In this document: positions 1,948 through 14,378 of the stretch, in pieces
Layout: each line of letters begins with the position of its first letter
Position numbering within the stretch: the first letter of the stretch is position 1
Source: a virus
Reading direction: 5' to 3' (one strand)
Length of the DNA: 59,891 nt
IMG/VR virus record: IMGVR_UViG_3300006111_000001
Notes under the pieces: model-generated
Seen by the model: only the letters and a program-made list of their open reading frames with translations
What the model was told of the DNA's origin: nothing
The model's database searches: none
Program-made: the position numbers and the translations under genes

Positions 1948-2339
1948 TTGTAATAGCTCACGTTGATAGTGGCGCTTGCAGTCGTTTGAATAAACTGCAA
2001 CGAAGCCAGATTGCCCGTGTAAGACAAAGCAGAACCCGCCGCGACCAGCATGCCAACAGATGCAGTTGGTGCCACACCATCATCGCGCCACCGAACAGAT
2101 TGTGTTTCAACCACGATAACAGCCAATGTCGCCCCGGTCGGCACGGTCAAAAACGTTGCCCCAGACAATGAGGTGATTTGCTGATACCCCAATGGCGTTA
2201 CAAATGCCGTGGACACCGTGCAGCTTGGTTGACTGCCAGGGCATCCAACCGTTGAAATCTTACTTGGAACAACGCTTGCCGCAGTTTGGGCAAAAGCCGG
2301 TGATACCAAAAGCCAAAAAACGACAATTAACCATTTCAT
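1944..2339 (-). CDS. Small secreted/structural protein (signal-peptide-like N-terminus)
   Basis: 131 aa; MKWLIVVFWLLVSPAFAQ leader; start overlaps upstream stop (translational coupling). Confidence 0.45.
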   Translation of the reverse strand: MKWLIVVFWLLVSPAFAQTAASVVPSKISTVGCPGSQPSCTVSTAFVTPLGYQQITSLSGATFLTVPTGATLAVIVVETQSVRWRDDGVAPTASVGMLVAAGSALSYTGNLASLQFIQTTASATINVSYYK

Positions 2340-4747
2340 TTTTTGGCCTCCAATTCTTCAAGCCGGGCAGTGAGTTCACGCACCGCTTGCCACAACACCG
2401 GAATTAATTGATCCGGCCTCAAATGATGTGTGCCATCTTCGTCTTGCACATATCCGGCAAAATCTTTGCCCGTGGCGGCAAACGCATCGCGCACTTCGGT
2501 AGCCAAGAAACCCCAATGGGTCCGCTTGCCAGGACGATCCACAAATTTTTTAACTTTGACCTTTTTTGCGATCATGCGCGGGACAGGGTGCATTTTTTGC
2601 TGCAATTGTCCCGGCTCGCCTTTTTTGCCCGGCACAAATTCCATGACCGGATTGCCATCGGCATCAACCACCGGCATCAAGTCATAAACGCCAGTTTCCG
2701 TTTTAACGATCCGGTCAAACGCAACCGGCTTGCCGTCCACAATTTGAATATCGTGAACAACGCCCTCAGACACTTCGCTTTCGTGAACAAGTTGATCTTC
2801 TTCAACTTCAATTTCATCCCGTCCACCGGCAATCCACTTAAACGTCTTTGGTTCAAGGGATTTAATGATGGGCAACACATCCGAAACCGGCTCAATATCG
2901 GTTTTTAAACTTGGATCAGATGTTTGAATGGTGCCATTGACAGCCCACACCGCAGACCACCGGCCCGCCGCCGTGCCGCATGTGTAAGCATTGTCAGATA
3001 ACCCAGCCAAATGACCGCCAAACACAGCCGCATAACCACCGCCCCCGGTAAATGTGGCGCGTCCATTTAACGTCAAACCAGCCAGAACGCCCGTGCCGTC
3101 AATGTTAATATAAGCACTGGACGTTCCGCCGCTCAAAATGCCCACTTGACCAGACACGCATTGAATATAAGCCGTCCCCGGATTCATTGTGGAATCTGGA
3201 AACGCTTTACCCGCCCCATATGATCCGTTTAAATAAATGCGAGCGGAATCGGCCAAAACAATCGATGCACTGGTGCCAGGATTATATCGGTGCGCTTGGG
3301 TCAAGTCGATTGCCGCGCGATACCCGGACAGACCTTTAAACGAAATGCCCGCGTCCACCGGAAATTTTACAGTAGACCCGCCAATAACATTGGTTCCGCT
3401 GGAATCCATCAGCCAGCCAATCCACGTATTGCCGTAACCAACAGTCGTCGTGGTTCCGCTGTAGAAAGTGGATTGCGACGTGCTGGACCCGGCTCGCAGC
3501 ATGCTATGAAACCAACCGATACATGCCACGTCATAAGATGTGGTGCCAGAAAGATTGGTGTAATCAAATTCAAACGGGTTTAGATACGTGCCATCTTTGT
3601 AAGACGTGGCCCCGCCGTTCATGATTGAAACGGCAGGACACGTTGCAAACCCATAAGTCGCATCGCCGGACGTAATTGTGGGCTTGGCCAATGCCGAAAT
3701 GCCAACATTGACATTCAACGCGGCGCAATCGCCCTTATTGTCCTGATAGACATTTAATTGCATGCCAACGGCGCTTGTCCGTTGCGTCAACGGATTGCCA
3801 AAAACGGTATAATCCGTGCTGCTATTCCAGCCCGAATAGTTCCGCATAAACAAAGCAAAGGGAAAGGTTTGCGGCATGTAATAAATACCGGTTGAATACC
3901 CCCCCAGCGTGTTTAGGCCGGTGACATAATGTTCAATGGAAAAATTCTGGCGCGACCAATCCCCGTTAAAATATTTGGTATTATCGGCCAAAGCAAAATT
4001 AGTCAGGTCCGGTTGCATTGTGACCATTGAATAAAATTTGCCGCGCTTGGATTGCGAGCCATCCAACGCCAAAGACGCAACTTGCCCTTGACCATAGAAA
4101 TTTGCCGTTAATTTCGGCCAAGTCTGATATGTCGCACCACCCGTCGAGCTTCCGCCATCCGATGACGCGGTTATGGTTGTGGTATAAAGCCCAACGGGAA
4201 CATAAATGCTGCCATTTGTATTGGCGCCAATCGCCGTTGTGACCGCAACCGTATTGTCATACCCATAAGTCGAAATACCGCCATAATACGCAAGATTGCG
4301 CGGCAAATCCTGATCTTGAATGTTCCGAAATGTCGGAGACGCGGTGACACCCGTGGACGCATTCCCCGGCCCCGCCAAAAATGTTTGGCTGGACACCGAA
4401 ATAAACGACGCGCTTAAAGTGCCAAACGTGGTGACGGGCGATCCGGTAATACCAAATAAAGCCGTGGGCAAAAATAGGCCAACCGAATTGACCCCAGCCC
4501 CAGATACCGCGACCCAGCCCGCGCTTGTCGTGGTTCCCGTGGTGACACATGCATAATAAGCCCGATTGGTCACGTCATAGCAGAAATCGGGCGGTACACC
4601 CCCGGCAACACCTTGCTGCCCGGCAACATGCCCGTTTGGATTCCCGGCATAGACAAAGACATTAGGCGATTGAATATTTGAACTCATAAACCACCTATTG
4701 AACAAACCAATTGCCCGCGCCATCGCATTGCAGCGTTGCACTGGCAA
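2336..4747 (-). CDS. Tail fibre/tailspike with C-terminal intramolecular-chaperone (peptidase S74-like) domain
   Basis: 803 aa. C-terminal ~195 aa carry the hallmark pattern of the endosialidase/T5 L-shaped-fibre chaperone domain: ...TSDPSLKTDIEPV... and terminal ...HLRPDQLIPVLWQAVRELTARLEELE. N-terminal body is G/S/T-rich. Confidence 0.6.
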   Translation of the reverse strand: MPVQRCNAMARAIGLFNRWFMSSNIQSPNVFVYAGNPNGHVAGQQGVAGGVPPDFCYDVTNRAYYACVTTGTTTSAGWVAVSGAGVNSVGLFLPTALFGITGSPVTTFGTLSASFISVSSQTFLAGPGNASTGVTASPTFRNIQDQDLPRNLAYYGGISTYGYDNTVAVTTAIGANTNGSIYVPVGLYTTTITASSDGGSSTGGATYQTWPKLTANFYGQGQVASLALDGSQSKRGKFYSMVTMQPDLTNFALADNTKYFNGDWSRQNFSIEHYVTGLNTLGGYSTGIYYMPQTFPFALFMRNYSGWNSSTDYTVFGNPLTQRTSAVGMQLNVYQDNKGDCAALNVNVGISALAKPTITSGDATYGFATCPAVSIMNGGATSYKDGTYLNPFEFDYTNLSGTTSYDVACIGWFHSMLRAGSSTSQSTFYSGTTTTVGYGNTWIGWLMDSSGTNVIGGSTVKFPVDAGISFKGLSGYRAAIDLTQAHRYNPGTSASIVLADSARIYLNGSYGAGKAFPDSTMNPGTAYIQCVSGQVGILSGGTSSAYINIDGTGVLAGLTLNGRATFTGGGGYAAVFGGHLAGLSDNAYTCGTAAGRWSAVWAVNGTIQTSDPSLKTDIEPVSDVLPIIKSLEPKTFKWIAGGRDEIEVEEDQLVHESEVSEGVVHDIQIVDGKPVAFDRIVKTETGVYDLMPVVDADGNPVMEFVPGKKGEPGQLQQKMHPVPRMIAKKVKVKKFVDRPGKRTHWGFLATEVRDAFAATGKDFAGYVQDEDGTHHLRPDQLIPVLWQAVRELTARLEELEAKK

Positions 4748-5492
4748 AATTGGATCGAAGGTTAAAAGCGGACGTGGACCCTAAAATGGTGTCCCCGGAA
4801 TAAGGCGTCACAGCGATATTGTAGGTTTGAGCCGTGCCAATTTCGTCAGTAACGGTAATTTTGTTCCAGATATAAGTGGACGTGCATTGGTAAAGATTTT
4901 CGGTCTTGTTTGAAGCCGTGGCACTTTTCCAAGCAATCGTGCTTAGAGACGGAATTGCGGTATCCGTTGACCCAGATGTGATTTGGCGCCCCACATTGGC
5001 CGTTGACGTTGTGGTGGACACGGATAGTGAATTAATCTGGCTTTGAAGCTGTTGAGTGATATAGGTTAGGTAATCTAACCCGCCCTCAATCGCCTTAAAT
5101 GTCGGCCCCTGGTTGGAAATCGACACCGTTTGAACCAAAGGAACCACACGCGAAATCGTGATGTAATATCCCGCCGATAATGGCGATCCGGTTAAGGGAT
5201 AAGTGACCGTCCCGCCAATGCTTCCAACCCCTGTCAGGGTGTATTGGCTTGGCGTTAATGTGGTCAAAGTGTTGGGAGTGACATTGGTATTTAATACTGT
5301 GATGACCGCATCCCCAGCCGACACCATGGGGAAATTATAGGTGAACGAGGTTGTAACCCCATTTCCTTGCGCCGTGGTCGAACTTGACGTGGTTGAAACG
5401 GTCGAAAATACCGGGTCCGCAATCAGTCCCAGTACAACAAAGACCAGAATTTTAAACACGGCGGACAAGCGCATTTGCACCTTTTCCGCCAA
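4695..5492 (-). CDS. S/T-rich structural protein (fibre module)
   Basis: 265 aa; hydrophobic N-terminal segment then Ser/Thr-rich sequence; start may be the TTG at 5492 or the internal ATG (MRLSAVFK). Confidence 0.4.
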   Translation of the reverse strand: MAEKVQMRLSAVFKILVFVVLGLIADPVFSTVSTTSSSTTAQGNGVTTSFTYNFPMVSAGDAVITVLNTNVTPNTLTTLTPSQYTLTGVGSIGGTVTYPLTGSPLSAGYYITISRVVPLVQTVSISNQGPTFKAIEGGLDYLTYITQQLQSQINSLSVSTTTSTANVGRQITSGSTDTAIPSLSTIAWKSATASNKTENLYQCTSTYIWNKITVTDEIGTAQTYNIAVTPYSGDTILGSTSAFNLRSNFASATLQCDGAGNWFVQ

Positions 5493-5566: not shown

Positions 5567-8500
5567 CTATTCGCCATTCCTAGCCCGCATTTTATCTTCC
5601 ATTGCACCTTTGATAATGTCGTTTGGCCCCCCGACACTTTGAGCCGCAATCATATTTGCCGCAGCCGTCCGGCTGGATGAAATCGTTTTGGTGATGGTTT
5701 CCGCCCGGATATTCTTGGGGATTTGCTGCCAGCCCGGATTTTGAACCAAAGCGTTTAATCGCATTTTGGCTAACCGGCCCGCCGTCTGGGCATATTGGTC
5801 ATATTGCTCATCGGTCAAATCCTGCCCTCGGATTGACCGGCGCAATTTCCCAACCCCCAGACCCAAGGCGTTCATTTCCTTAACCACCGAATCATTGGCA
5901 TAACGATCCGCCGTGCCACTTTGCGGGATTGGTTCGCCAAACATATCTCGTTTGGGCAATAGGCCAATTGAGACAAACGGCACCTTGGCCTTGGCGGCAT
6001 CCAATAAGGTCCGCGCTTCGCGTTGATACGGATCGACCGCGTGAGCCACTTGACTCATGCCAACGCTAAACGGCATCCAATTGATGACCATCCCTCGAAT
6101 ATAGCTTTCGCCATATTCTTCCGGATGAAACACCGCATTCAGCATGTCAGACAATCCTTTCATAAAGGTTTCATCCAACACCGCTTTATTAAACCCTTCA
6201 AACGCCGCTTTGGCTAAAACCGTGCCATCTTCACCATCCCAGCCATGCGCGGCTTCGGTCATATTGGCCCCAAACCGCATAAGCATGGCAAACGGCCCCA
6301 GACGGTCATAGGCCACCGACACATCGCCAATGGTAATGTGATTGGGTTTATTGGCCATCAGCCACACACGGCGCTCATTGGGATCAGCAGGGCCATCCCC
6401 GGTCATCAACCCATTTAAGGTCATCATGACGGATGTACCGATTAAAGCCGTGCCGGTGGCGATTTTGCCAAATTGCATGTCTTGAGCAGACCCGCCGTTT
6501 TGCCCGGACAAATTGCCGCGCACGTCCCTATCCAATAAGCCAATGGGCGAGCGTTCAATAAATGCTTCGCGGGTTATTTGGGTGCCAATTTTCATAAACG
6601 GCACAATGATTTTTGCCGCTAGGTTTGAATTGGCCGCAGCTGTTAATTTCCCTGAAAACGAATTGTAATCCGCAGGCGCCATGAATAATTCTTTCATGGC
6701 ATCCGCACTTGCAGCAATCATCATTTCCGGTGTCGGCTTTTGAGTTAATTCCGCAACCCGTCCTTTGAACGCATCCCCGGTCAAACCATCATTCATGGCT
6801 TCCCGATAGGCCAAAGATTGAATGTTTTGCTCATATCGCAGGGATTTAAAAAACGAGTGAATGGCCGCAACCGATTTGGACGGCACATTGATAATTTCGC
6901 CAACCTTGCCCGGAATGGCCCGCGTGTTCATATCGGTAAAATGACCAGATACCTTTTCCCCAGGCAATGCAGGGGAAATGCCGGTTTTAAACGCTTGCGT
7001 TGCCGCCATTAAGCCATCGGATGATCCCTTCATCATGCCGTATAATTGCGCGCCCGCCTCACCTAAATAAACTCGATTTTTGACCTCATAGCCCAAAGCC
7101 TCGCGCGCCGCGCCGACCGCAGACGCCACCGGAATTTCGATCAAAGGACGCGCCAAGGCATTTAACGCATTGCCCACCGAATACCGGGCATGGGTTATCG
7201 GCCCCGAAATCAAAGCATTAACGTAATATTCCAATATGGCGTTTTTGATCGACCCACGGGCGGAATCATTAACAAACTTGGCCACTTGTCCCGGCGTTTG
7301 CAGGTTCATCCCAAATTGCGCTTCTTGCCTTAGTTGTTCCGGTGTCCGGCCAATGGTGCTTTGGAAGAATTGCGCCAACGCTTCGGCATCCGCCGACCCT
7401 TCCAGCTTACGGAATGCTCCCAACGCCCGGCCAGCTTCCGCCGTAATCCCCGCCACTTGCTCTTGAATCATCAAGTGACGTTGCCGCGCTTTGGCATAGG
7501 CCATCACATCGGCATCCGATCCATTGGCCGCTTTTGCCATCAAATCACGCACTTCCGTCGCAGATTGAATTAACAGCTTTCGAGCCGCAAGGATTTGTTC
7601 GGCGTTGAACGCTTCCCCGATCCGGCGCCAATTGAGTTTTGCCGCATTCATGCCCAAAGCATCGGCCAGGTCCAATTGTTCCCCGGCAGAAATCACGCCC
7701 CGCCGTGCGGCCATGAAATCTTCATTATCCGCCGCCGTTTGACGCAAAACTTCTTTTACATCTTCCGGTGTATTGAGATTATCTAACCGGATATTCCCGG
7801 CCTTATCTACAAGGTCTGATTCATCGGTTGCGAACCGCTCATTGGGTCCGGCTGGGTATTCTGTCTTGCTCCCATTAGACCTAGTGCTGCGTCCGCGTGA
7901 TCCGCTGCTTTCTTGAACATCGACCGCACCTCCTCCGGCAGGTCCTGATTGCCCGCCATCATCCGCGCTCTTGATCGGCCCTCTAGCAGATTCTTCCGCC
8001 CGGTATTCATTTTCCAAATCCTCCTCGGTGCGCGGATTGTCGTAATCCGGCACGTTATCACCTTCCCAAGCATCGCCTTTGGCTTCTAAATGAGACTTGG
8101 CCCATTCTTCCGCGTGGCGCAATTCGCGCTCAAAATCCGCTTCCTGAGAATGAATTTCCTTTAATTGTTCTTCGGTTGACATGCGGCTGGCAACTTCATT
8201 CCAGAACTCGCTATGCGACATGCCGTCCGCTTTAATGCCCAATTCCCCGGCAATTCGATCCACTTCGGAATTGTGGTTTAAAGCATCCTGATAGGCTTTA
8301 ACCTTGTCATAATCAAAATCGGAGAATTGATGGTCCCCGTTTACGTCACGGGTTAGCTTTTCCAAAAATTGATTAATCGTGGGACGTTCACCGCCCAATT
8401 CAGGGAAAAACCCGGCTTCTTCCGCCGCTTGCGCCACCCGGTCAATATCTTTGCCCGTTTTGCGCAGCACCCCGCCATTACGCTTGCCACCAAACAATGC

Positions 8501-11047
8501 CGCAATATCGCCCCGATCATTGCCAATTCCGCCATAAGATCGAACAAAATCGGTTAGCGTCGAAGGGCGCGCAGGAACCTTGGAATAAAGCTTTTGCTTT
8601 GAACTAGGGCCAAATTTTAGGTTTGACTCTTGTGGTGGTCCAATGCCTTCAACCTTAGCTTGACCTCCGCCCGCGCCGACCGTTCCAGATTTTTGTATAG
8701 CGCCATTTGTTCCGGTGTCAGGTCCGGACGCATTGACGCCACTGTCAGCACCTTCACTTCGTGCCGGGCTTTCGCCAGGTCCGTTTCCAATTCTTCCAGG
8801 CTGTAATTCATCCGAAATCTCCGAAGCATGTTCATCAGCTACCGCGTGACGCTCATCACGCACCCTATCGCCAACGACCTTTGCTTGGTTCCCCGGCGTG
8901 TGTTCCGCATCGCCTTCATGCAGCGTTGCAAAATCAGCCCCCAAAGCACGATCCGGCGCTATTGTAACCTTTTCCGGGTTGGTTGACAAAAGCCTATCGA
9001 ACACGTCCCGAATATCGTCATTGATAGGCGATTTCAGCCGGGTCACGGTTTCATAAATCTTGGTCAGCCATTGTTTAAATTGATCAAACACCCGCGCTAG
9101 GGTTTGGCTTGGCGCGCGGCCTTCCATCAAATAACGTTCAAACCCGCGCGCAAACTTTTCATGCGCCCGCGTCGGTATGGCCTCATCCTCGCTAACCCCA
9201 AGCCATTTACGCACCGTTGCAGCATCCGCCTTAATTTGATCCGGTGCAGCCTCATGAACGGCATCGGCCATCATTTCTTCTAGAAACTTATGGCCGGTTT
9301 CATGGATAAAAGTTGACGCATCGGCGCCCTTGAACAGTTTGATAATTGTCTTATTTTCCCGGAATTGAACAGAACCCCGCTTGGCTTGCTCATATTCCTT
9401 GGCCGTGATTTCCGGCGCTTGATCCTTTTTTTGCGCCATTTCCCGCACACGTTCGCGCGCGGCTTGGATGACGGCCCCATCCCGGTTAAACAATTCCAAC
9501 GGCGATCCCAGCTTGCCGCCCATGCGCGCCGCCCGTGTTTCATACCTTGCCGCGATTAATTGAGCAGCGGCTTCCGCTTCATCCCTTGGCCGTCCGGCAT
9601 CTTCCAATTGACGCGCGACCCTAGAGGCAATTTGCGCCTTTTGTTGTTCAATCGGCAATTCTGTTTTGGCCGGTGTCTCGTCAGGCTTTACACCCTCCGC
9701 CGCAGGTTCACCCGGTTTAGTCTCGACCGGCTTGGCCGTTTCAGTGACCGTTTCATTTTTCGGTTGCGCAGTTTCCGTTTCACCTTGCTCCCGGCCCTGA
9801 ACGCGCGCCTCATCAACGGCTTGCTCGACTTCCGGTGCGGCTTCTTGCGGCATACGCTCTTGCGCTTCCCGATATGCTTTTGTCACATCCGGCGCTAAAT
9901 CGCGCATTTTATAATCATTTTCTTGCAGCACGCGGCGGATGCGCGCCATGTCCGGCGAATCCAGCTTGGCCGTGCTTTCAATTTCGTCCAATTGATCCCG
10001 CAAATCAGATAACCGGCCCGCTTGACGTTTGGTCAAACGATCTTCGACACCATTAACCTTGGCTAAAATATCGTCAATTTCGCTATTGATTGATTTTACA
10101 TCTTCCCGGTTAGCGTGTGCTTCATCGCGCGTTTCCGACAGCTCATTGAGCCATTTGCGATAGGTATCGCGCCGCGCCACCAAAGCATCGTATTTTTCAA
10201 ACGTATCGGGATCAATTTGACGCGCAATAGAATGAATATCCGGCTGTGCTTCTTGCGTTGTGGCTTGAACCGGCGTTGCCTCCGGTGTCGCTTGAGCCTC
10301 CGCCCCAGCCGCCCCTTGTTCGGCAAGCTGATCTTCTAACGGTTTGACACTGGATTTTAAATCATCCGCCAATGCACCATCGGCCAATGGTTCAGGTTCT
10401 TTCAGTCCAAAATAAACCGCGTCATCCCCGCCAATGACTTTGTTCTTAATGGCATCATTCCAAAACTTTGCCGGTGCCGGATGAAACTTTGACCCAAATG
10501 GAAAGCCCATGGCTTCCATGTCCATAATGCCCGTTACGTCCCGTCCCAGCTTATTCAAGCCAAACACGCCACCCGTTGCATTATTGGCTTCTTCACCCGC
10601 CTGAACGATACCCGCTTGGACGCCGCTATACCCCGCCGCACCTACTCTTAAAGCTGCATTTGCCGCCATGACCGCAGGGCGCATGAACGTATCATTAAAC
10701 CCACCCATGAAACTGGGTTTTTTGGGATCGTTAAACCAACCCAGTTTTTTAAAGAAATCTTCGCTTTCCGGAGACAACGCCATTCCTTCCCAGCCGGTTT
10801 TTACGCCGCCCACAAAAGCATCAGTAATCCTGCCTTCCGGTGTCCCCTTGAACCATTGATTAAATTGGTCAGACGTATTGGCTAAAGGCTGAATAGGCGG
10901 CACTTTTGGCAGACGCGCATCAACACCCGGATAAAATGGCCCAGGTTGAGCAGGCGCATGCTGATCCAGCAATGAATCAACGTCCATTGACTGATTCGGC
11001 GCATGCGCATCCAATAAATCATCGACAGATGACGGCTGATCGGTCAT
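5567..11047 (-). CDS. Giant internal virion/ejection protein (T7 gp16-like position), polyvalent, with HExxH zincin-like motif
   Basis: 1826 aa; last gene of a gp11-gp16-like series. Contains a long acidic, probably coiled region (aa ~220-500) and the motif ...ASTFIHETGHKFLEEMM... (HExxH, codons ~9290..9304). Confidence 0.5.
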   Translation of the reverse strand: MTDQPSSVDDLLDAHAPNQSMDVDSLLDQHAPAQPGPFYPGVDARLPKVPPIQPLANTSDQFNQWFKGTPEGRITDAFVGGVKTGWEGMALSPESEDFFKKLGWFNDPKKPSFMGGFNDTFMRPAVMAANAALRVGAAGYSGVQAGIVQAGEEANNATGGVFGLNKLGRDVTGIMDMEAMGFPFGSKFHPAPAKFWNDAIKNKVIGGDDAVYFGLKEPEPLADGALADDLKSSVKPLEDQLAEQGAAGAEAQATPEATPVQATTQEAQPDIHSIARQIDPDTFEKYDALVARRDTYRKWLNELSETRDEAHANREDVKSINSEIDDILAKVNGVEDRLTKRQAGRLSDLRDQLDEIESTAKLDSPDMARIRRVLQENDYKMRDLAPDVTKAYREAQERMPQEAAPEVEQAVDEARVQGREQGETETAQPKNETVTETAKPVETKPGEPAAEGVKPDETPAKTELPIEQQKAQIASRVARQLEDAGRPRDEAEAAAQLIAARYETRAARMGGKLGSPLELFNRDGAVIQAARERVREMAQKKDQAPEITAKEYEQAKRGSVQFRENKTIIKLFKGADASTFIHETGHKFLEEMMADAVHEAAPDQIKADAATVRKWLGVSEDEAIPTRAHEKFARGFERYLMEGRAPSQTLARVFDQFKQWLTKIYETVTRLKSPINDDIRDVFDRLLSTNPEKVTIAPDRALGADFATLHEGDAEHTPGNQAKVVGDRVRDERHAVADEHASEISDELQPGRIGNGPGESPARSEGADSGVNASGPDTGTNGAIQKSGTVGAGGGQAKVEGIGPPQESNLKFGPSSKQKLYSKVPARPSTLTDFVRSYGGIGNDRGDIAALFGGKRNGGVLRKTGKDIDRVAQAAEEAGFFPELGGERPTINQFLEKLTRDVNGDHQFSDFDYDKVKAYQDALNHNSEVDRIAGELGIKADGMSHSEFWNEVASRMSTEEQLKEIHSQEADFERELRHAEEWAKSHLEAKGDAWEGDNVPDYDNPRTEEDLENEYRAEESARGPIKSADDGGQSGPAGGGAVDVQESSGSRGRSTRSNGSKTEYPAGPNERFATDESDLVDKAGNIRLDNLNTPEDVKEVLRQTAADNEDFMAARRGVISAGEQLDLADALGMNAAKLNWRRIGEAFNAEQILAARKLLIQSATEVRDLMAKAANGSDADVMAYAKARQRHLMIQEQVAGITAEAGRALGAFRKLEGSADAEALAQFFQSTIGRTPEQLRQEAQFGMNLQTPGQVAKFVNDSARGSIKNAILEYYVNALISGPITHARYSVGNALNALARPLIEIPVASAVGAAREALGYEVKNRVYLGEAGAQLYGMMKGSSDGLMAATQAFKTGISPALPGEKVSGHFTDMNTRAIPGKVGEIINVPSKSVAAIHSFFKSLRYEQNIQSLAYREAMNDGLTGDAFKGRVAELTQKPTPEMMIAASADAMKELFMAPADYNSFSGKLTAAANSNLAAKIIVPFMKIGTQITREAFIERSPIGLLDRDVRGNLSGQNGGSAQDMQFGKIATGTALIGTSVMMTLNGLMTGDGPADPNERRVWLMANKPNHITIGDVSVAYDRLGPFAMLMRFGANMTEAAHGWDGEDGTVLAKAAFEGFNKAVLDETFMKGLSDMLNAVFHPEEYGESYIRGMVINWMPFSVGMSQVAHAVDPYQREARTLLDAAKAKVPFVSIGLLPKRDMFGEPIPQSGTADRYANDSVVKEMNALGLGVGKLRRSIRGQDLTDEQYDQYAQTAGRLAKMRLNALVQNPGWQQIPKNIRAETITKTISSSRTAAANMIAAQSVGGPNDIIKGAMEDKMRARNGE

Positions 11048-13389
11048 TGCATTGGCACCGTGGGCTTATAGGCTTCGGTTGCCCATTTGTTATCTAGCAA
11101 AGCTTTTCGCGCTTGGTCGCGCGTGATTTTGCCTTGATTGAAAGCCGTTAGCACATTTTCCTTTGTGGACAAATCCACCGCAGCGGCTTTAACGGGCGCC
11201 GTCTGAGTTGGGACAACCGATTGCGGATTGCCCACCAATACGTCAGCTTGCCATTGATTAAACGGGCGCGCATACCCTTTAGTTAATTCGCCCAAAGATT
11301 CCGGGTTTCCAAAACTCAATAATTTGGCCGGTGGAATGCCTTTTGCCCGACCCTCTTTGTAAGCATCGACAAATGACCCCAAGAAATTTTGATAAAGTTG
11401 ATCCCCCTTGGGATCAACAAACCCCATGTGCTCATTCGAGCCTGTAATTTGACCCTTGGCGGCTTTTAAAAACTCTGTTTGCAATTGCTTTTCGGAATCA
11501 TTTTGCGCCATCAGGGTTTGAAGGTGCTTAAGCCCCTCAAAATTCAACCCGCCATCTTTGAAATGCTGCATTAATTGTGATGGATCGGTAATTTGTGGCC
11601 CATTAGGTGACGGCGCCAAAACTTGCGCGACCAAATCGGGAAAATCCTTGCCATACAACGCCGCGTCTTTGTTCACTCCATGCGCCGCTGCCGTCAAAAC
11701 ATGTGTTTGAATGCTCGTGGCAAATTGCGGAGAATGCGCCATTGACCGTTCCCACGCGGCTTTCACGTCAGGACTAATCGAGGTCAGTTGTTCAATAGAC
11801 GTGGGTTTTTGACCCGTCCGGTTTAATTCCCCGCTGACAGCCTGAACGACCAAATCATTGTCCGCCTTATAAGACATTTCCTGTTGGCGGATTTGGTCAC
11901 CCAATCTCTGCTCAACCCGCGACCGGGCCAAATCCCTGAATTGTTGATCCCCAGGCCGTTGCGCTTCCGCTTGATCTTCCGCTTGCTTGACAATCGCCGC
12001 ATAATTCTGCCGCAAATAATCCGTCGAGGTCAGCATGGGCCGGTTATCGTTCCCAGCCGCATTTGCAACTTTGGTCGGTTTTTGACCCGCGAAAGCTTGT
12101 TCGATTCCTTGCGTTACGGACGTATCGTCAAACGCCGCTCGATCCGCTTGACCCTTTTCAGCGGGAACAATTGCCTTGATTAAGGACGATACCGCCGTTT
12201 TGTCATCCATATTTGGCACCGCATTGGGCGCAAGCCCGGATGCCCTGGACACATTATTGACCCAATTATCCACTTCACTTTGTGGCTGATCCTTGCCCAC
12301 CCATTTGCGCCCGATTTCCGCAAGTGTCATTCCCCGGTAATTATTACGAAGATTGGATGCCGTCGCGTTCACCCCATCGGCAGGTGTCGCATAGTTTTCA
12401 AAATCCGGCACATTATTGGCAATGCCATAAGCAGATTTGATATTTCCAGGGTTATTAGACCCTTTATTCAGCCCATTGGTAAATGTCTGGGTCGCTGTTC
12501 CAATGACATTATCGGCAATGGACCGGGTTTGCGCGTCTTTAATCTTGGGCTGCAAAAACGCTTCAATCTGAACTTGAGCCGTGCCGGGAATGCGCGACCG
12601 ATTGTCTTGAAACAATTTTGCCGCCATATCGACATTGGAATTGGACAGCGTGCGCAGTCTTTCTTCCCATGCCTTACCCACGGCGGTATCTCGAACGGAT
12701 TGATAAACGGACGACGCCCGCTTGCCATTTTCGCTGTCGTCAAATGATAACAACCCATCATCTTGTTGGGTCATGCCCGTACCAGCATCCCATCCTTGGG
12801 TTTGCATTTGACGCGCCACGCCAAAATTCACGTCATGCAAAATATCTTCAAACCGCATGTCATTGGCGGCAATGGATGAATCCCCAGCCCTTGAGACAGC
12901 CGTTAAAACCGACGCATGGGCGGAATCCGCGTCCGCCTTTTTAACTTGGGTCGCGGAATAATTATTGGCATCCGAAAGCGCATAACCCTCATGCCTTAAT
13001 GCCAATGTGGTAAACGCTTTTTGAACCGCAGGATTGGGCAGCGTTTCTAACAATTGTTGACGTAAATCTTGAACGTCTTGACTATATTGAGGAAGGGCCG
13101 CAACCGCCGCCAAGCCCTCTTTTGACTTATACGCCGCGCTCAATTTGGACAATTGGTCCATATAAGTTGTTTCGGCATTTGTGGCCATTGTCTCGTTCAG
13201 CATGCCTTGTTGTTTCAGGGCAATATCACCAGCTTCTTGACCGGCATGCTGAACCGATTGACCCAATCCCGAAATAGCAGACGCAACCCCGGCGCCAAAC
13301 GCATCCGGAGACGCATTGACATTCAAAAACCCACCGGATGGTCCGTTAGGTTGAACGCTCGGTATGGCGTCGGGCGTTGCAATGGGCAT
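11044..13389 (-). CDS. Internal core protein (T7 gp15-like by position and size)
   Basis: 781 aa, helix-rich, between the gp14-like and gp16-like ORFs; start/stop overlaps (ATGA) with neighbours. Confidence 0.45.
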   Translation of the reverse strand: MPIATPDAIPSVQPNGPSGGFLNVNASPDAFGAGVASAISGLGQSVQHAGQEAGDIALKQQGMLNETMATNAETTYMDQLSKLSAAYKSKEGLAAVAALPQYSQDVQDLRQQLLETLPNPAVQKAFTTLALRHEGYALSDANNYSATQVKKADADSAHASVLTAVSRAGDSSIAANDMRFEDILHDVNFGVARQMQTQGWDAGTGMTQQDDGLLSFDDSENGKRASSVYQSVRDTAVGKAWEERLRTLSNSNVDMAAKLFQDNRSRIPGTAQVQIEAFLQPKIKDAQTRSIADNVIGTATQTFTNGLNKGSNNPGNIKSAYGIANNVPDFENYATPADGVNATASNLRNNYRGMTLAEIGRKWVGKDQPQSEVDNWVNNVSRASGLAPNAVPNMDDKTAVSSLIKAIVPAEKGQADRAAFDDTSVTQGIEQAFAGQKPTKVANAAGNDNRPMLTSTDYLRQNYAAIVKQAEDQAEAQRPGDQQFRDLARSRVEQRLGDQIRQQEMSYKADNDLVVQAVSGELNRTGQKPTSIEQLTSISPDVKAAWERSMAHSPQFATSIQTHVLTAAAHGVNKDAALYGKDFPDLVAQVLAPSPNGPQITDPSQLMQHFKDGGLNFEGLKHLQTLMAQNDSEKQLQTEFLKAAKGQITGSNEHMGFVDPKGDQLYQNFLGSFVDAYKEGRAKGIPPAKLLSFGNPESLGELTKGYARPFNQWQADVLVGNPQSVVPTQTAPVKAAAVDLSTKENVLTAFNQGKITRDQARKALLDNKWATEAYKPTVPMQ

Positions 13390-13925
13390 TAGATCACACC
13401 GGCCATTTTATACCCAGCCGCTTGACCGGATAGTGAAGATGCCCCGCTTAACAATGAACTAAACGCGCCAATCTGTCCCGCAGCCGCCGCATTCTCGCCT
13501 TTGAGCGTATCCAATTGAGAATCCGCCTGAAACCCAGCACCCTCAAGGTCATAGCCATAGGCTTGCTTGGCGGCATTGGATCGAACGGTTAAAGCGTTTA
13601 ATTGTCCGGTTTCCGCCGCCGATGACCGCACGTCCACAGATGACCCGGAATTAACATCGACTCCAGACGCAGCTTGAGCGGCCTTAATAGCCCCCAATTC
13701 TTGCCGATTTTTTTGCCCTTCATTGGCGGTTTGCTGTTCGCCCGCAACAGACGCCACCCGCGACTTTTCCCCGGCGATAATGGCGTTATTTTGCGCGACT
13801 TGAGCTTGATAATTTGCCGCCGCTCGCTGCGCTTCGCCTTGACGAATATTGCCAAGGATCGAAACGCCAGTCCCCACACCCGCCGTTGCCAATGCTGCAA
13901 TTGCTAATGTAGTTGGTTCACACAT
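13389..13925 (-). CDS. Internal virion protein (T7 gp14-like by position)
   Basis: 178 aa, Ala/Gln-rich with hydrophobic N-terminus; synteny only. Confidence 0.4.
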   Translation of the reverse strand: MCEPTTLAIAALATAGVGTGVSILGNIRQGEAQRAAANYQAQVAQNNAIIAGEKSRVASVAGEQQTANEGQKNRQELGAIKAAQAASGVDVNSGSSVDVRSSAAETGQLNALTVRSNAAKQAYGYDLEGAGFQADSQLDTLKGENAAAAGQIGAFSSLLSGASSLSGQAAGYKMAGVI

Positions 13926-14378
13926 TTACCGCCTCAATTCAAATCGCCGAAACAAGGCCCGCTTTGGTCCAAATTCAACGGGCGGACCAAGATCAAACCC
14001 CAGAATCAAAAGAAACCCACAGGCTTGCACGTAGGATGCCAGCACATAATTTTCCAATAAAGGAAACATTGCTTGCATCTTGGCCACTTCGCGCCGCCCT
14101 TCCCTTACAAAAGAAAATGGCACGCGCTCAATAGCCTCAGACGTTAAAAGCCATGGATAACCCACACCCGATAAGACCGATCCGCCAACCCCAAACATGC
14201 ACGCAATGTCGCCATCAACAAATGCCGTGCGTCGAATAATGCTACCACGAAACGCCTTAAACAGCGCCCGATTGGGCGACATGCCCACGGACGTTAATTC
14301 TAATTTATCACCCCGACGCAGCTTATCTGCCAACATCGAAACGTGATTTAATTGCGCGGGAACAATTTGATACCTCAC
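13926..14378 (-). CDS. Small virion protein (T7 gp13-like by position)
   Basis: 150 aa; directly downstream of the tail-tubular-B-like gene; synteny only. Confidence 0.35.
   Translation of the reverse strand: MRYQIVPAQLNHVSMLADKLRRGDKLELTSVGMSPNRALFKAFRGSIIRRTAFVDGDIACMFGVGGSVLSGVGYPWLLTSEAIERVPFSFVREGRREVAKMQAMFPLLENYVLASYVQACGFLLILGFDLGPPVEFGPKRALFRRFELRR

Follow-up and report, generated by a model that had tools for sequence, protein, structure and literature searches.

A conserved beta-rich cassette inserted into the peptidase S74 chaperone of a podovirus-like tail fibre or spike

We analysed a tail-fibre or spike gene on a 59,891-nt stretch of viral DNA (IMG/VR record IMGVR_UViG_3300006111_000001; the whole stretch is called the window below). 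The last 194 residues of its 783-amino-acid (aa) product are a peptidase S74 intramolecular chaperone, an ordinary member of that family in every respect that could be tested from sequence, and this domain is interrupted by a 96-residue insert predicted to form an ordered beta-ribbon. The insert belongs to a conserved cassette that recurs in two different loops of S74 domains, in Peptidase_G2 chaperones and in small stand-alone proteins. We consider it likely, with a probability of roughly 0.75, that the protein is a distal receptor-binding fibre or spike of an uncultured podovirus, carrying a self-cleaving S74 chaperone, in which the grafted cassette acts as the chaperone's tentacle. Residue numbers refer to the 783-aa product; 20 is added for the 803-aa open reading frame (ORF) that opens at an upstream TTG.

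The Pfam model Peptidase_S74 (PF13884) matched the whole protein with 36.7 bits (E = 5.3e-9; curated cut-off 22) and the last 196 aa alone with 41.9 bits (E = 1.2e-10). This bore out a first-pass annotation of the window, which had assigned the C-terminal ~195 aa to this chaperone type and had named the lack of a significant match to the domain as the outcome that would speak against it. The Pfam match fell into two stretches split by the insert, the best of which covered profile positions 1−35 of 58. The family phrog_28871 spanned the whole C-terminus (E = 4.9e-29), and several tail fibre/spike PHROGs matched the cleavage-site region. A phmmer search of PDB sequences with the 196-aa C-terminus found no chain, and the solved S74 structures were reached only by profiles: a profile of 21 relatives matched 4UW8 (T5 pb1, E = 2.5e-12), 7Y5S, 4HIZ (phi92 endosialidase), 6EU4, 3GW6 (K1F) and 3GUD (GA-1), and a domain-only profile reached GA-1 3GUD, MyRF 7DC3 and S16 6F45. 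Foldseek comparison of the predicted model with BFVD returned S74 and intramolecular chaperone auto-processing (ICA) proteins, with a protein of phage ZQ2 as the best structural match; against the PDB, the monomer model matched 3GW6 best, weakly, and the other matches, to long-hairpin proteins of a generic kind (pore-forming toxins, for example), were treated as non-specific. Peptidase_G2 (PF11962) gave no match to the window protein up to E = 1. The S74 domain reaches the stop codon of a tail-module gene that follows the internal virion protein genes and an adaptor gene. In precomputed public Pfam data, this very protein carries Peptidase_S74 with no more than a "faint" mark, probably because the model, 58 positions long, is split by the 96-aa insert; S74 domains with such inserts are probably under-annotated as a rule.

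The catalytic site of the S74 family, with its Ser-x4-Lys motif (defined in PMC10769870, PMC8326128), is preserved in full. In a profile alignment to 4UW8, Asp565, Arg576, Thr589, Ser590 and Lys595 corresponded to T5 pb1 Asp1239, Arg1250, Thr1263, Ser1264 and Lys1269, respectively, the residues drawn in the description of the T5 catalytic site (PMC4690869). Ser590 is invariant and Lys595 is kept in at least 90% of sequences (alignments A1 and A5); all five positions are invariant or near-invariant among relatives, as are columns D2, N3, G8, R13, W14 and N21−T26 of alignment A1. Arg576 lies 14 and Asp565 25 residues before Ser590, and the Arg offset equals that from Arg897 to Ser911 in the K1F endosialidase endoNF. 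This Arg comes from the stalk once it has folded, which makes cleavage dependent on correct folding (PMC8326128). T5 pb1 is cut between Thr1263 and Ser1264 (PMC4690869) and MyRF between Pro586 and Ser587 (PMC8326128). By analogy, the scissile bond of the window protein is predicted to join Thr589 and Ser590, and its cleavage is predicted to yield a 61.1-kDa mature fibre and a 21.7-kDa released fragment.

The same domain could in principle have kept the S74 fold and lost self-cleavage, so that it would remain attached to the virion, forming a permanent cap or knob at the C-terminus with the insert as part of the exposed tip. The split match to the 58-position Pfam model and the "faint" public mark make such divergence conceivable, and the insert, at 10.8 kDa, is big enough to provide a functional surface. 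We regard a permanent cap as improbable, since Asp565, Arg576, Thr589, Ser590 and Lys595 are all retained and mutation of these residues blocks cleavage in endoNF, T5 or MyRF (PMC4690869, PMC8326128). The cassette is moreover found in two other types of chaperone, which are not parts of mature fibres.

The window protein is predicted to end in a helix that may form a trimerising coiled coil. This terminal helix of about 25 residues (758−782) was modelled with a predicted local distance difference test score (pLDDT) above 90 in two monomeric AlphaFold models and carries hydrophobic residues at 3-4-3-4 spacing, as would be expected of such a coiled coil. The domain profile aligned this helix to the helix of MyRF that forms a trimerising coiled coil (PMC8326128).

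The insert is bordered by FKWIAGG on its N-terminal side and PGKRTHWGF on its C-terminal side. At the same site, relatives carry loops of 3 aa (P0008), 16−37 aa (many proteins), 77 aa (P0004) and 96−100 aa (P0001 and P0002). The equivalent loop measures ~6 aa in GA-1 3GUD and ~17 aa in S16, which makes the insert a true insertion relative to the canonical domains. Two independent AlphaFold models, like all the models used here monomeric, gave the insert a pLDDT of ~90, with strands at residues 622−635, 637−650, 653−666, 668−672, 682−685, 694−697, 699−703 and 705−718. Among its 96 residues are 17 V, 19 D/E and 14 K/R, and the insert is acidic over its first 40 residues and basic over its last 40. 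Net charge is −5 in the first strand, GRDEIEVEEDQLVH, and +5 in the last, MIAKKVKVKKFVDR; oppositely charged end strands fit an antiparallel stem pair, and the models suggest an ordered, charge-zippered beta-ribbon of long antiparallel strands. The first-pass annotation had pointed to an unusual ~100-aa acidic/Lys-rich insertion here. The insertion is real (residues 623−718) and unusual next to the solved and canonical S74 domains, but it is a recurrent, conserved module; the acidic/Lys-rich impression is explained by the charged end strands, whereas the linker-like character that the wording implied is at odds with the ordered ribbon of the models. An intein or mobile element was rejected as an explanation of the insert: 96 aa is too small for an intein, the predicted structure is all-beta, and no splicing-type motif was seen on reading the sequence, no dedicated scan having been made. 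Neither the GC content of the insert nor that of its third codon positions (GC3) showed a marked anomaly, and nothing in the base composition pointed to the insert having been acquired recently.

The recurrence of the cassette was established with a profile built from the window insert and the inserts of three relatives, which was searched against 1.84 billion representative sequences. It matched 349 clusters at E ≤ 1e-3, 47 of them at E ≤ 1e-10, mostly near the C-terminus of proteins of 450−900 aa. The family consensus, (E-rich strand)...I-E-I-V-D-G-K-A-V...P-V-F-D-E-x-P-V-x-D-E-x-G-x-P-V-M...H-x-V-P-R-M, extends over 90−100 residues and appears in the window insert as I-x-I-V-D-G-K-P-V, Y-D-x-x-P-V-V-D-x-D-G-N-P-V-M and H-P-V-P-R-M. 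Over 146 representatives the order of the motifs was fixed, with conservation of 100% for G30, 97% for G56, 89% for D47, 84% for P58, 83% for H78 and ~85% for P81-R82-M83.

The top 150 matches, which were inspected, classified by motif and scanned with Pfam, fell into four contexts. In type I (~70 proteins), the cassette occupies the same S74 loop as in the window. In type II, it follows the G-x-I-A-Q-E-V helix of S74, which is the position of the K1F/T5 "tentacle" hairpin, as in the K1F-like arrangement GLDPxxYGFICxDxW-cassette-PAGDRYxFRxDEL and the relatives P0022, P0098 and P0173. Seven metagenomic proteins of the phi29 gp12 type carry it in a Peptidase_G2 domain, the Pfam match being split around the cassette (e.g. 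P0048 and P0070), and stand-alone proteins of 140−280 aa with no known domain consist of the cassette and then a short helix. Smith-Waterman alignments of the window insert with cassettes from each context were compared with 500 composition-preserving shuffles each, and 0/500 reached the observed score in every context; the z scores were 18−25 for type I S74, 8−14 for type II S74, 8−12 for the G2 domains (four of the seven compared) and 8−13 for the stand-alone proteins. Some type II domains have two or three cassettes in tandem. Such tandems within one S74 loop, recorded in P0035, P0036, P0091, P0149 and P0153, imply much longer or branched arms. Three very long proteins (P0027, P0050 and P0060; 1,683 to 5,826 aa) each matched the central part of the cassette profile 17−21 times, weakly and partially; by Pfam, P0027 is rich in cadherin and Ig repeats. 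Each stretch was weak, and these matches were judged compositional and set aside.

No model matching the cassette exists in Pfam or NCBIfam, and among the PHROGs only phrog_28871, which is unannotated, contains it. The insert profile gave chance-level matches to PDB sequences and no match in a word-indexed search, and tblastn against 50,697 phage records found nothing with the insert alone and nothing with the stand-alone protein P0079. The literature searched discusses tentacles and their variable length, and in it we found no conserved cassette common to S74, G2 and stand-alone chaperones; a cassette shared among these chaperone scaffolds is apparently undescribed.

These data bear on whether the insert has a defined structure at all. 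Its biased composition (the V, D/E and K/R counts given above), the span of site lengths among relatives from 3 to ~100 aa and the failure of tblastn to find the insert alone in cultured phages could all be accommodated if the insert were a charged linker, flexible and of low complexity, or junk inserted recently, with neither fold nor role. Such an insert would, however, hardly be predicted as long strands at a pLDDT of ~90 in two runs, keep its motif positions in 83−100% of 146 representatives, attract 47 clusters at E ≤ 1e-10 or exceed shuffled controls so far, and its GC and GC3 are without marked anomaly. A linker or junk insertion is thus very improbable, and the insert is best treated as an ordered cassette.

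As to its role, the hairpin that follows the helix in endoNF has been called an "extremely long tentacle" (PMC8326128), and in T5 and K1F three tentacles embrace the fibre tip and lie in its grooves (PMC4690869, PMC8326128). The window ribbon does not occupy this canonical position: it precedes the R-x-H-x-G strand, in the beta1-beta2 connection (MyRF nomenclature), rather than beta3-beta4 after the G-x-I-A-Q-E-V helix. It is nonetheless predicted to form an antiparallel ribbon of the tentacle kind, with its strands 622−635, 637−650, 653−666 and 705−718 modelled at a pLDDT of ~90. Precedents for variation exist: each S16 subunit was predicted to bear two hairpins, and the tentacle length of Alteromonas phage chaperones varies through insertion (both PMC10579305).

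The two S74 contexts speak most directly to function. In the protein P0022 the S74 Pfam match is complete and unsplit (profile 1−57 of 58), and after it comes a cassette that is 41% identical to that of the window over 101 residues (E = 6e-12). The S74 cores of the two proteins, with the cassettes removed, gave no BLASTP alignment up to E = 100, so that the cassette is far better conserved than the domain that hosts it. From the end of the cassette to the C-terminus there are 65−90 aa in type I and 38.5 aa (median) in type II, where the Ser-to-cassette distance has a median of 76 aa. In both types the released fragment measures ~203 aa, with one long arm and the other loop short. One arm from either loop in a fragment of constant size is what would be expected if the cassette supplied the same function from both loops.

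An ordered cassette might still do something other than embrace the tip, such as pack chaperones against one another (e.g. as dimers of trimers), time or gate cleavage, or contact another assembly partner. The insertion site, which differs from that of the solved tentacles, would allow this; AlphaFold-Multimer placed the long hairpins of Alteromonas chaperones perpendicular to the fibre and too distant for contacts (PMC10579305), and the conserved H-x-V-P-R-M and D-x-G motifs suit a self-contained fold more than a surface that adapts to many tips. We nevertheless give these roles little credence, because either S74 loop is used while the other stays short and the fragment keeps its size, and because the cassette sits at the tentacle-bearing hairpin of K1F-like domains, a pattern predicted by functional replacement of the tentacle. 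The insert is thus most likely the tentacle of this chaperone, placed at a non-canonical loop. More tentatively, and at somewhat less than even odds, the cassette may be an autonomous family that has moved horizontally among at least four scaffolds (two S74 loops, Peptidase_G2 and small trans-acting proteins), a portable client-gripping element whose placement is set only by which loops face the fibre tip.

Assembly under the tentacle reading would proceed in four steps. Three nascent chains would join through the heptad helix 758−783, as in K1F endoNF, T5 pb1 and MyRF, and the joined helices would then template the intertwined beta-structure just upstream. Completion of the last turn of the stalk would set Asp565 and Arg576 beside Ser590 and Lys595, allowing the bond between Thr589 and Ser590 to be cut in each chain. 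The 21.7-kDa chaperone would then depart, leaving the 61.1-kDa mature protein on the virion with its tip unmasked. Throughout folding, the insert (623−718) would act as an arm reaching back along the fibre tip, to be lost with the chaperone. A functional precedent for unmasking is the uncleaved T5 protein, which did not compete for the receptor (PMC4690869).

Several points weigh against this picture. EP335 gp13 was reported to be cut one residue later, after the Ser (PMC8217332), whereas T5 and MyRF are cut before it, and autoproteolysis and trimerisation of the window protein are argued from analogy with such relatives. The loop that carries the insert differs from the solved K1F tentacle loop, and functional equivalence of the two would follow from the distribution and size of the arms. 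Strand pairing within the insert, as well as its contact with the fibre body, was deduced from the secondary-structure string of monomer models. A full-length AlphaFold run on a shallow alignment gave residues 1−597 of the body a pLDDT below 50 and thus provided no tip onto which a tentacle could be docked in silico. Finally, the weak multi-copy matches in cadherin/Ig giants indicate that the cassette profile attracts beta-rich composition.

Comparison with known systems likens the window protein to phage appendages with self-cleaving chaperones. Like the K1F endosialidase (3GW6), T5 pb1 (4UW8) and the GA-1 neck appendage (3GUD), it bears the S74 domain at the extreme C-terminus of a fibre or spike, and it shares with them the S-D-x3-K dyad, the Asp and Arg in a turn of the form D-N-x-Y-x-x-G-x4-R-W...N-G-T-I-x-T, the helix and the R-x-H-x-G-phi-x-A strand, as well as a terminal helix, here a predicted one that may form a coiled coil. 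It differs from T5 pb1 in the size of the released fragment (194 aa, compared to 133 aa in T5; PMC4690869), the extra being the 96-aa cassette, and from K1F in the tentacle hairpin, which is long in K1F; in the window protein the hairpin at the K1F tentacle position, D-F-A-G-Y-V-Q...H-H-L-R-P-D, is short and vestigial.

The nearest cultured counterparts are the tail protein gp27 of the Escherichia phage vB_EcoP-ZQ2 (YP_010659964.1, Gamaleyavirus) and gp13 of Pantoea phage ROV85, which also end in an S74 domain with an insert of 85−90 aa at the same site and with the same motif order. Both belong to phrog_28871 and are 34−37% identical to the window protein over residues 585−782 in the 803-aa numbering (565−762 in the 783-aa product). 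Their inserts have diverged from the window insert, with z scores of only 1.3 (ZQ2) and 7.5 (ROV85), and their fibre bodies and phage families are unlike those of the window. In the literature searched, neither the insert nor the processing of ZQ2 gp27 and ROV85 gp13 is described, and papers on G7C, gp66 and chaperones make no statement on the processing of the ZQ2 gp27 counterpart.

Two further systems are similar in part. The phi29 gp12-type auto-chaperone (Peptidase_G2, PF11962; 3SUC) is a C-terminal, self-cleaving appendage chaperone, with short tentacles (PMC4690869); the window protein shares with metagenomic G2 domains only the cassette and not the host domain. The stand-alone chaperones A5 gp9 and V22 gp27 of Alteromonas phages cap the fibre tip with an insertion-lengthened beta-hairpin tentacle on a helical body (PMC10579305), a likeness in principle; they differ in acting in trans and in undergoing no cleavage. 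Short stand-alone cassette proteins with a terminal helix adjoin receptor-binding genes. The gene for one of them, P0086 (191 aa; L011:6001-6576, also in L012 and L013), overlaps the end of a gene for a 292-aa Mtd_N-like receptor-binding protein and is followed by genes for a 246-aa product and for a 762-aa product with a GP38 domain, in a siphovirus-like tail module on 30-kb contigs. By gene position, P0086 is a candidate trans-acting fibre chaperone.

If the protein is a self-cleaving fibre or spike as proposed, its form in the virion would be ~61 kDa and end at Thr589, rather than 83 kDa, and its receptor-binding surface would probably be masked until cleavage. Expression of the fibre would have to retain residues 590−783 for folding. 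A cassette profile would also recover S74 cases that Pfam marks only faintly. The spread of the cassette over two S74 loops, Peptidase_G2 and stand-alone proteins suggests that interchangeable parts make up phage fibre chaperones, and provides a testable handle on what tentacles contribute to the folding of trimeric beta-structure.

The coordinates of the gene and its parts are collected in Table 1. The mechanical minus-strand ORF (2336..4747) opens at a TTG at 4747, 20 codons before the ATG at 4687. This ATG lies 8 nt past the stop of the upstream ORF and 3 nt after AGGTGG (the TAG stop at 4695−4697 of the upstream 265-aa mechanical ORF is followed by GTGG-TTT-ATG), and an identical 783-aa product is gene-called from it on 12 public contigs, among them a JGI metagenome contig of 59,867 nt, almost as long as the window. 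Judged from this sequence context, the ATG is almost certainly the true start of the gene. A start at the TTG would overlap the upstream gene by 53 nt. The full-length chain has a mass of 82.9 kDa, and the stop codon is at 2336−2338. The range 2336−2925 includes the stop codon at its lower end and reaches, at its upper end, just 5' of the Thr589 codon (2921−2923), the Ser590 codon being 2918−2920, and takes in the C-terminal 194 residues; both strings quoted for it in the first-pass annotation, ...NGTIQTSDPSLKTDIEP... and the terminal ...LIPVLWQAVRELTARLEELEAKK, are found in the ORF.

Table 1. Positions of the fibre or spike gene, of the parts of its C-terminus and of the adaptor gene in the window.
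Feature	Coordinates	Strand	Basis
Distal tail-fibre/spike gene, 783 aa	2339..4687	−	ORF list, ATG with AGGTGG, gene calls, PHROG tail fibre/spike matches
Last stalk turn before the predicted cleavage site, D565-N-A-Y-x-x-G-x4-R576-W ... N-G-T-I-Q-T589	2921..2995	−	Alignment A1, profile alignment to 4UW8, 4UW7 and 4HIZ
Catalytic motif S590-D-P-S-L-K595 (Ser-Lys dyad)	2903..2920	−	Position 1 of the Pfam S74 profile falls on Ser590
S74 first part, residues 590−622: dyad, short helix, strand K-T-F-K-W	2822..2920	−	Best Pfam stretch, AlphaFold secondary structure
Putative tentacle module (96 aa), residues 623−718, between the FKW strand and the R-x-H-x-G strand	2534..2821	−	AlphaFold, module profile, family consensus
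S74 second part, residues 719−757: P-G-K-R-T-H-W-G-F strand, ATEVRDAF helix, short hairpin D-F-A-G-Y-V-Q...H-H-L-R-P-D	2417..2533	−	Second Pfam stretch, conserved columns, alignment to 3GUD and MyRF 7DC3
Predicted C-terminal amphipathic helix, residues 758−783	2339..2416	−	AlphaFold pLDDT >90, heptad read from the sequence, MyRF alignment
259-aa gene with an N-terminal adaptor domain for tail attachment, as is typical of podovirus fibres/spikes	4695..5474	−	PHROG matches, gene call

The first-pass annotation had called the gene product a large tail fibre. Its matches to tail fibre/spike PHROGs agree with that name, but the tail-attachment domain sits on the separate, upstream 259-aa gene, and a PHROG search found none in the 783-aa protein. 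Residues 31−158 of the 259-aa product matched positions 2−125 of many tail fibre/spike PHROGs (best E = 3.8e-23). The 259-aa adaptor is the probable docking partner, and the 783-aa protein is probably a distal subunit docked on it. Full-length homologues of the 783-aa protein numbered only three, and homologues of its body were few: P0174, and P0175, which combines Pectate_lyase_3 with S74. The body could be that of a fibre or of an enzymatic spike.

The window is a ~60-kb podovirus-like genome with a T7-like gene order, in which the structural genes run from the portal, the major head protein, tail tube A and B and the internal virion proteins to the 259-aa adaptor gene and the 783-aa fibre gene. 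Megablast of 13 kb of the structural module against phages gave no match, which indicates no close cultured relative at the DNA level.

Five consecutive genes around the fibre gene, the 259-aa adaptor gene and then genes of 131, 496, 160 and 278 aa, encode products with hydrophobic, signal-peptide-like N-termini, such as MKWLIVVFWLLVSPAFAQ and MMKRLAIVLFGLIVCVPAIAQQ, and several of these products are rich in Gly, Ser and Thr. The genes lie at 4695-5474, 1944-2339 and 457-1947 of the window, all on the minus strand, and at L003:7228-7710 and L003:7712-8352. There is a 4-nt overlap between each of the 131-aa, 496-aa and 160-aa genes and the stop of the gene before it, and the 131-aa and 496-aa proteins had no significant Pfam or PHROG match. 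This gene order would couple candidate secreted or membrane-anchored proteins to a fibre gene. On the other side of the adaptor gene lies a T7-like ejectosome block (5567-11047, 11044-13389, 13389-13925 and 13926-14378, all on the minus strand), whose products are a 178-aa protein of the T7 gp14 family (PF24072), two others of 150 and 781 aa, and an internal virion protein that is unusually large at 1826 aa and matches phrog_6651 at its C-terminus and phrog_9880 in its middle.

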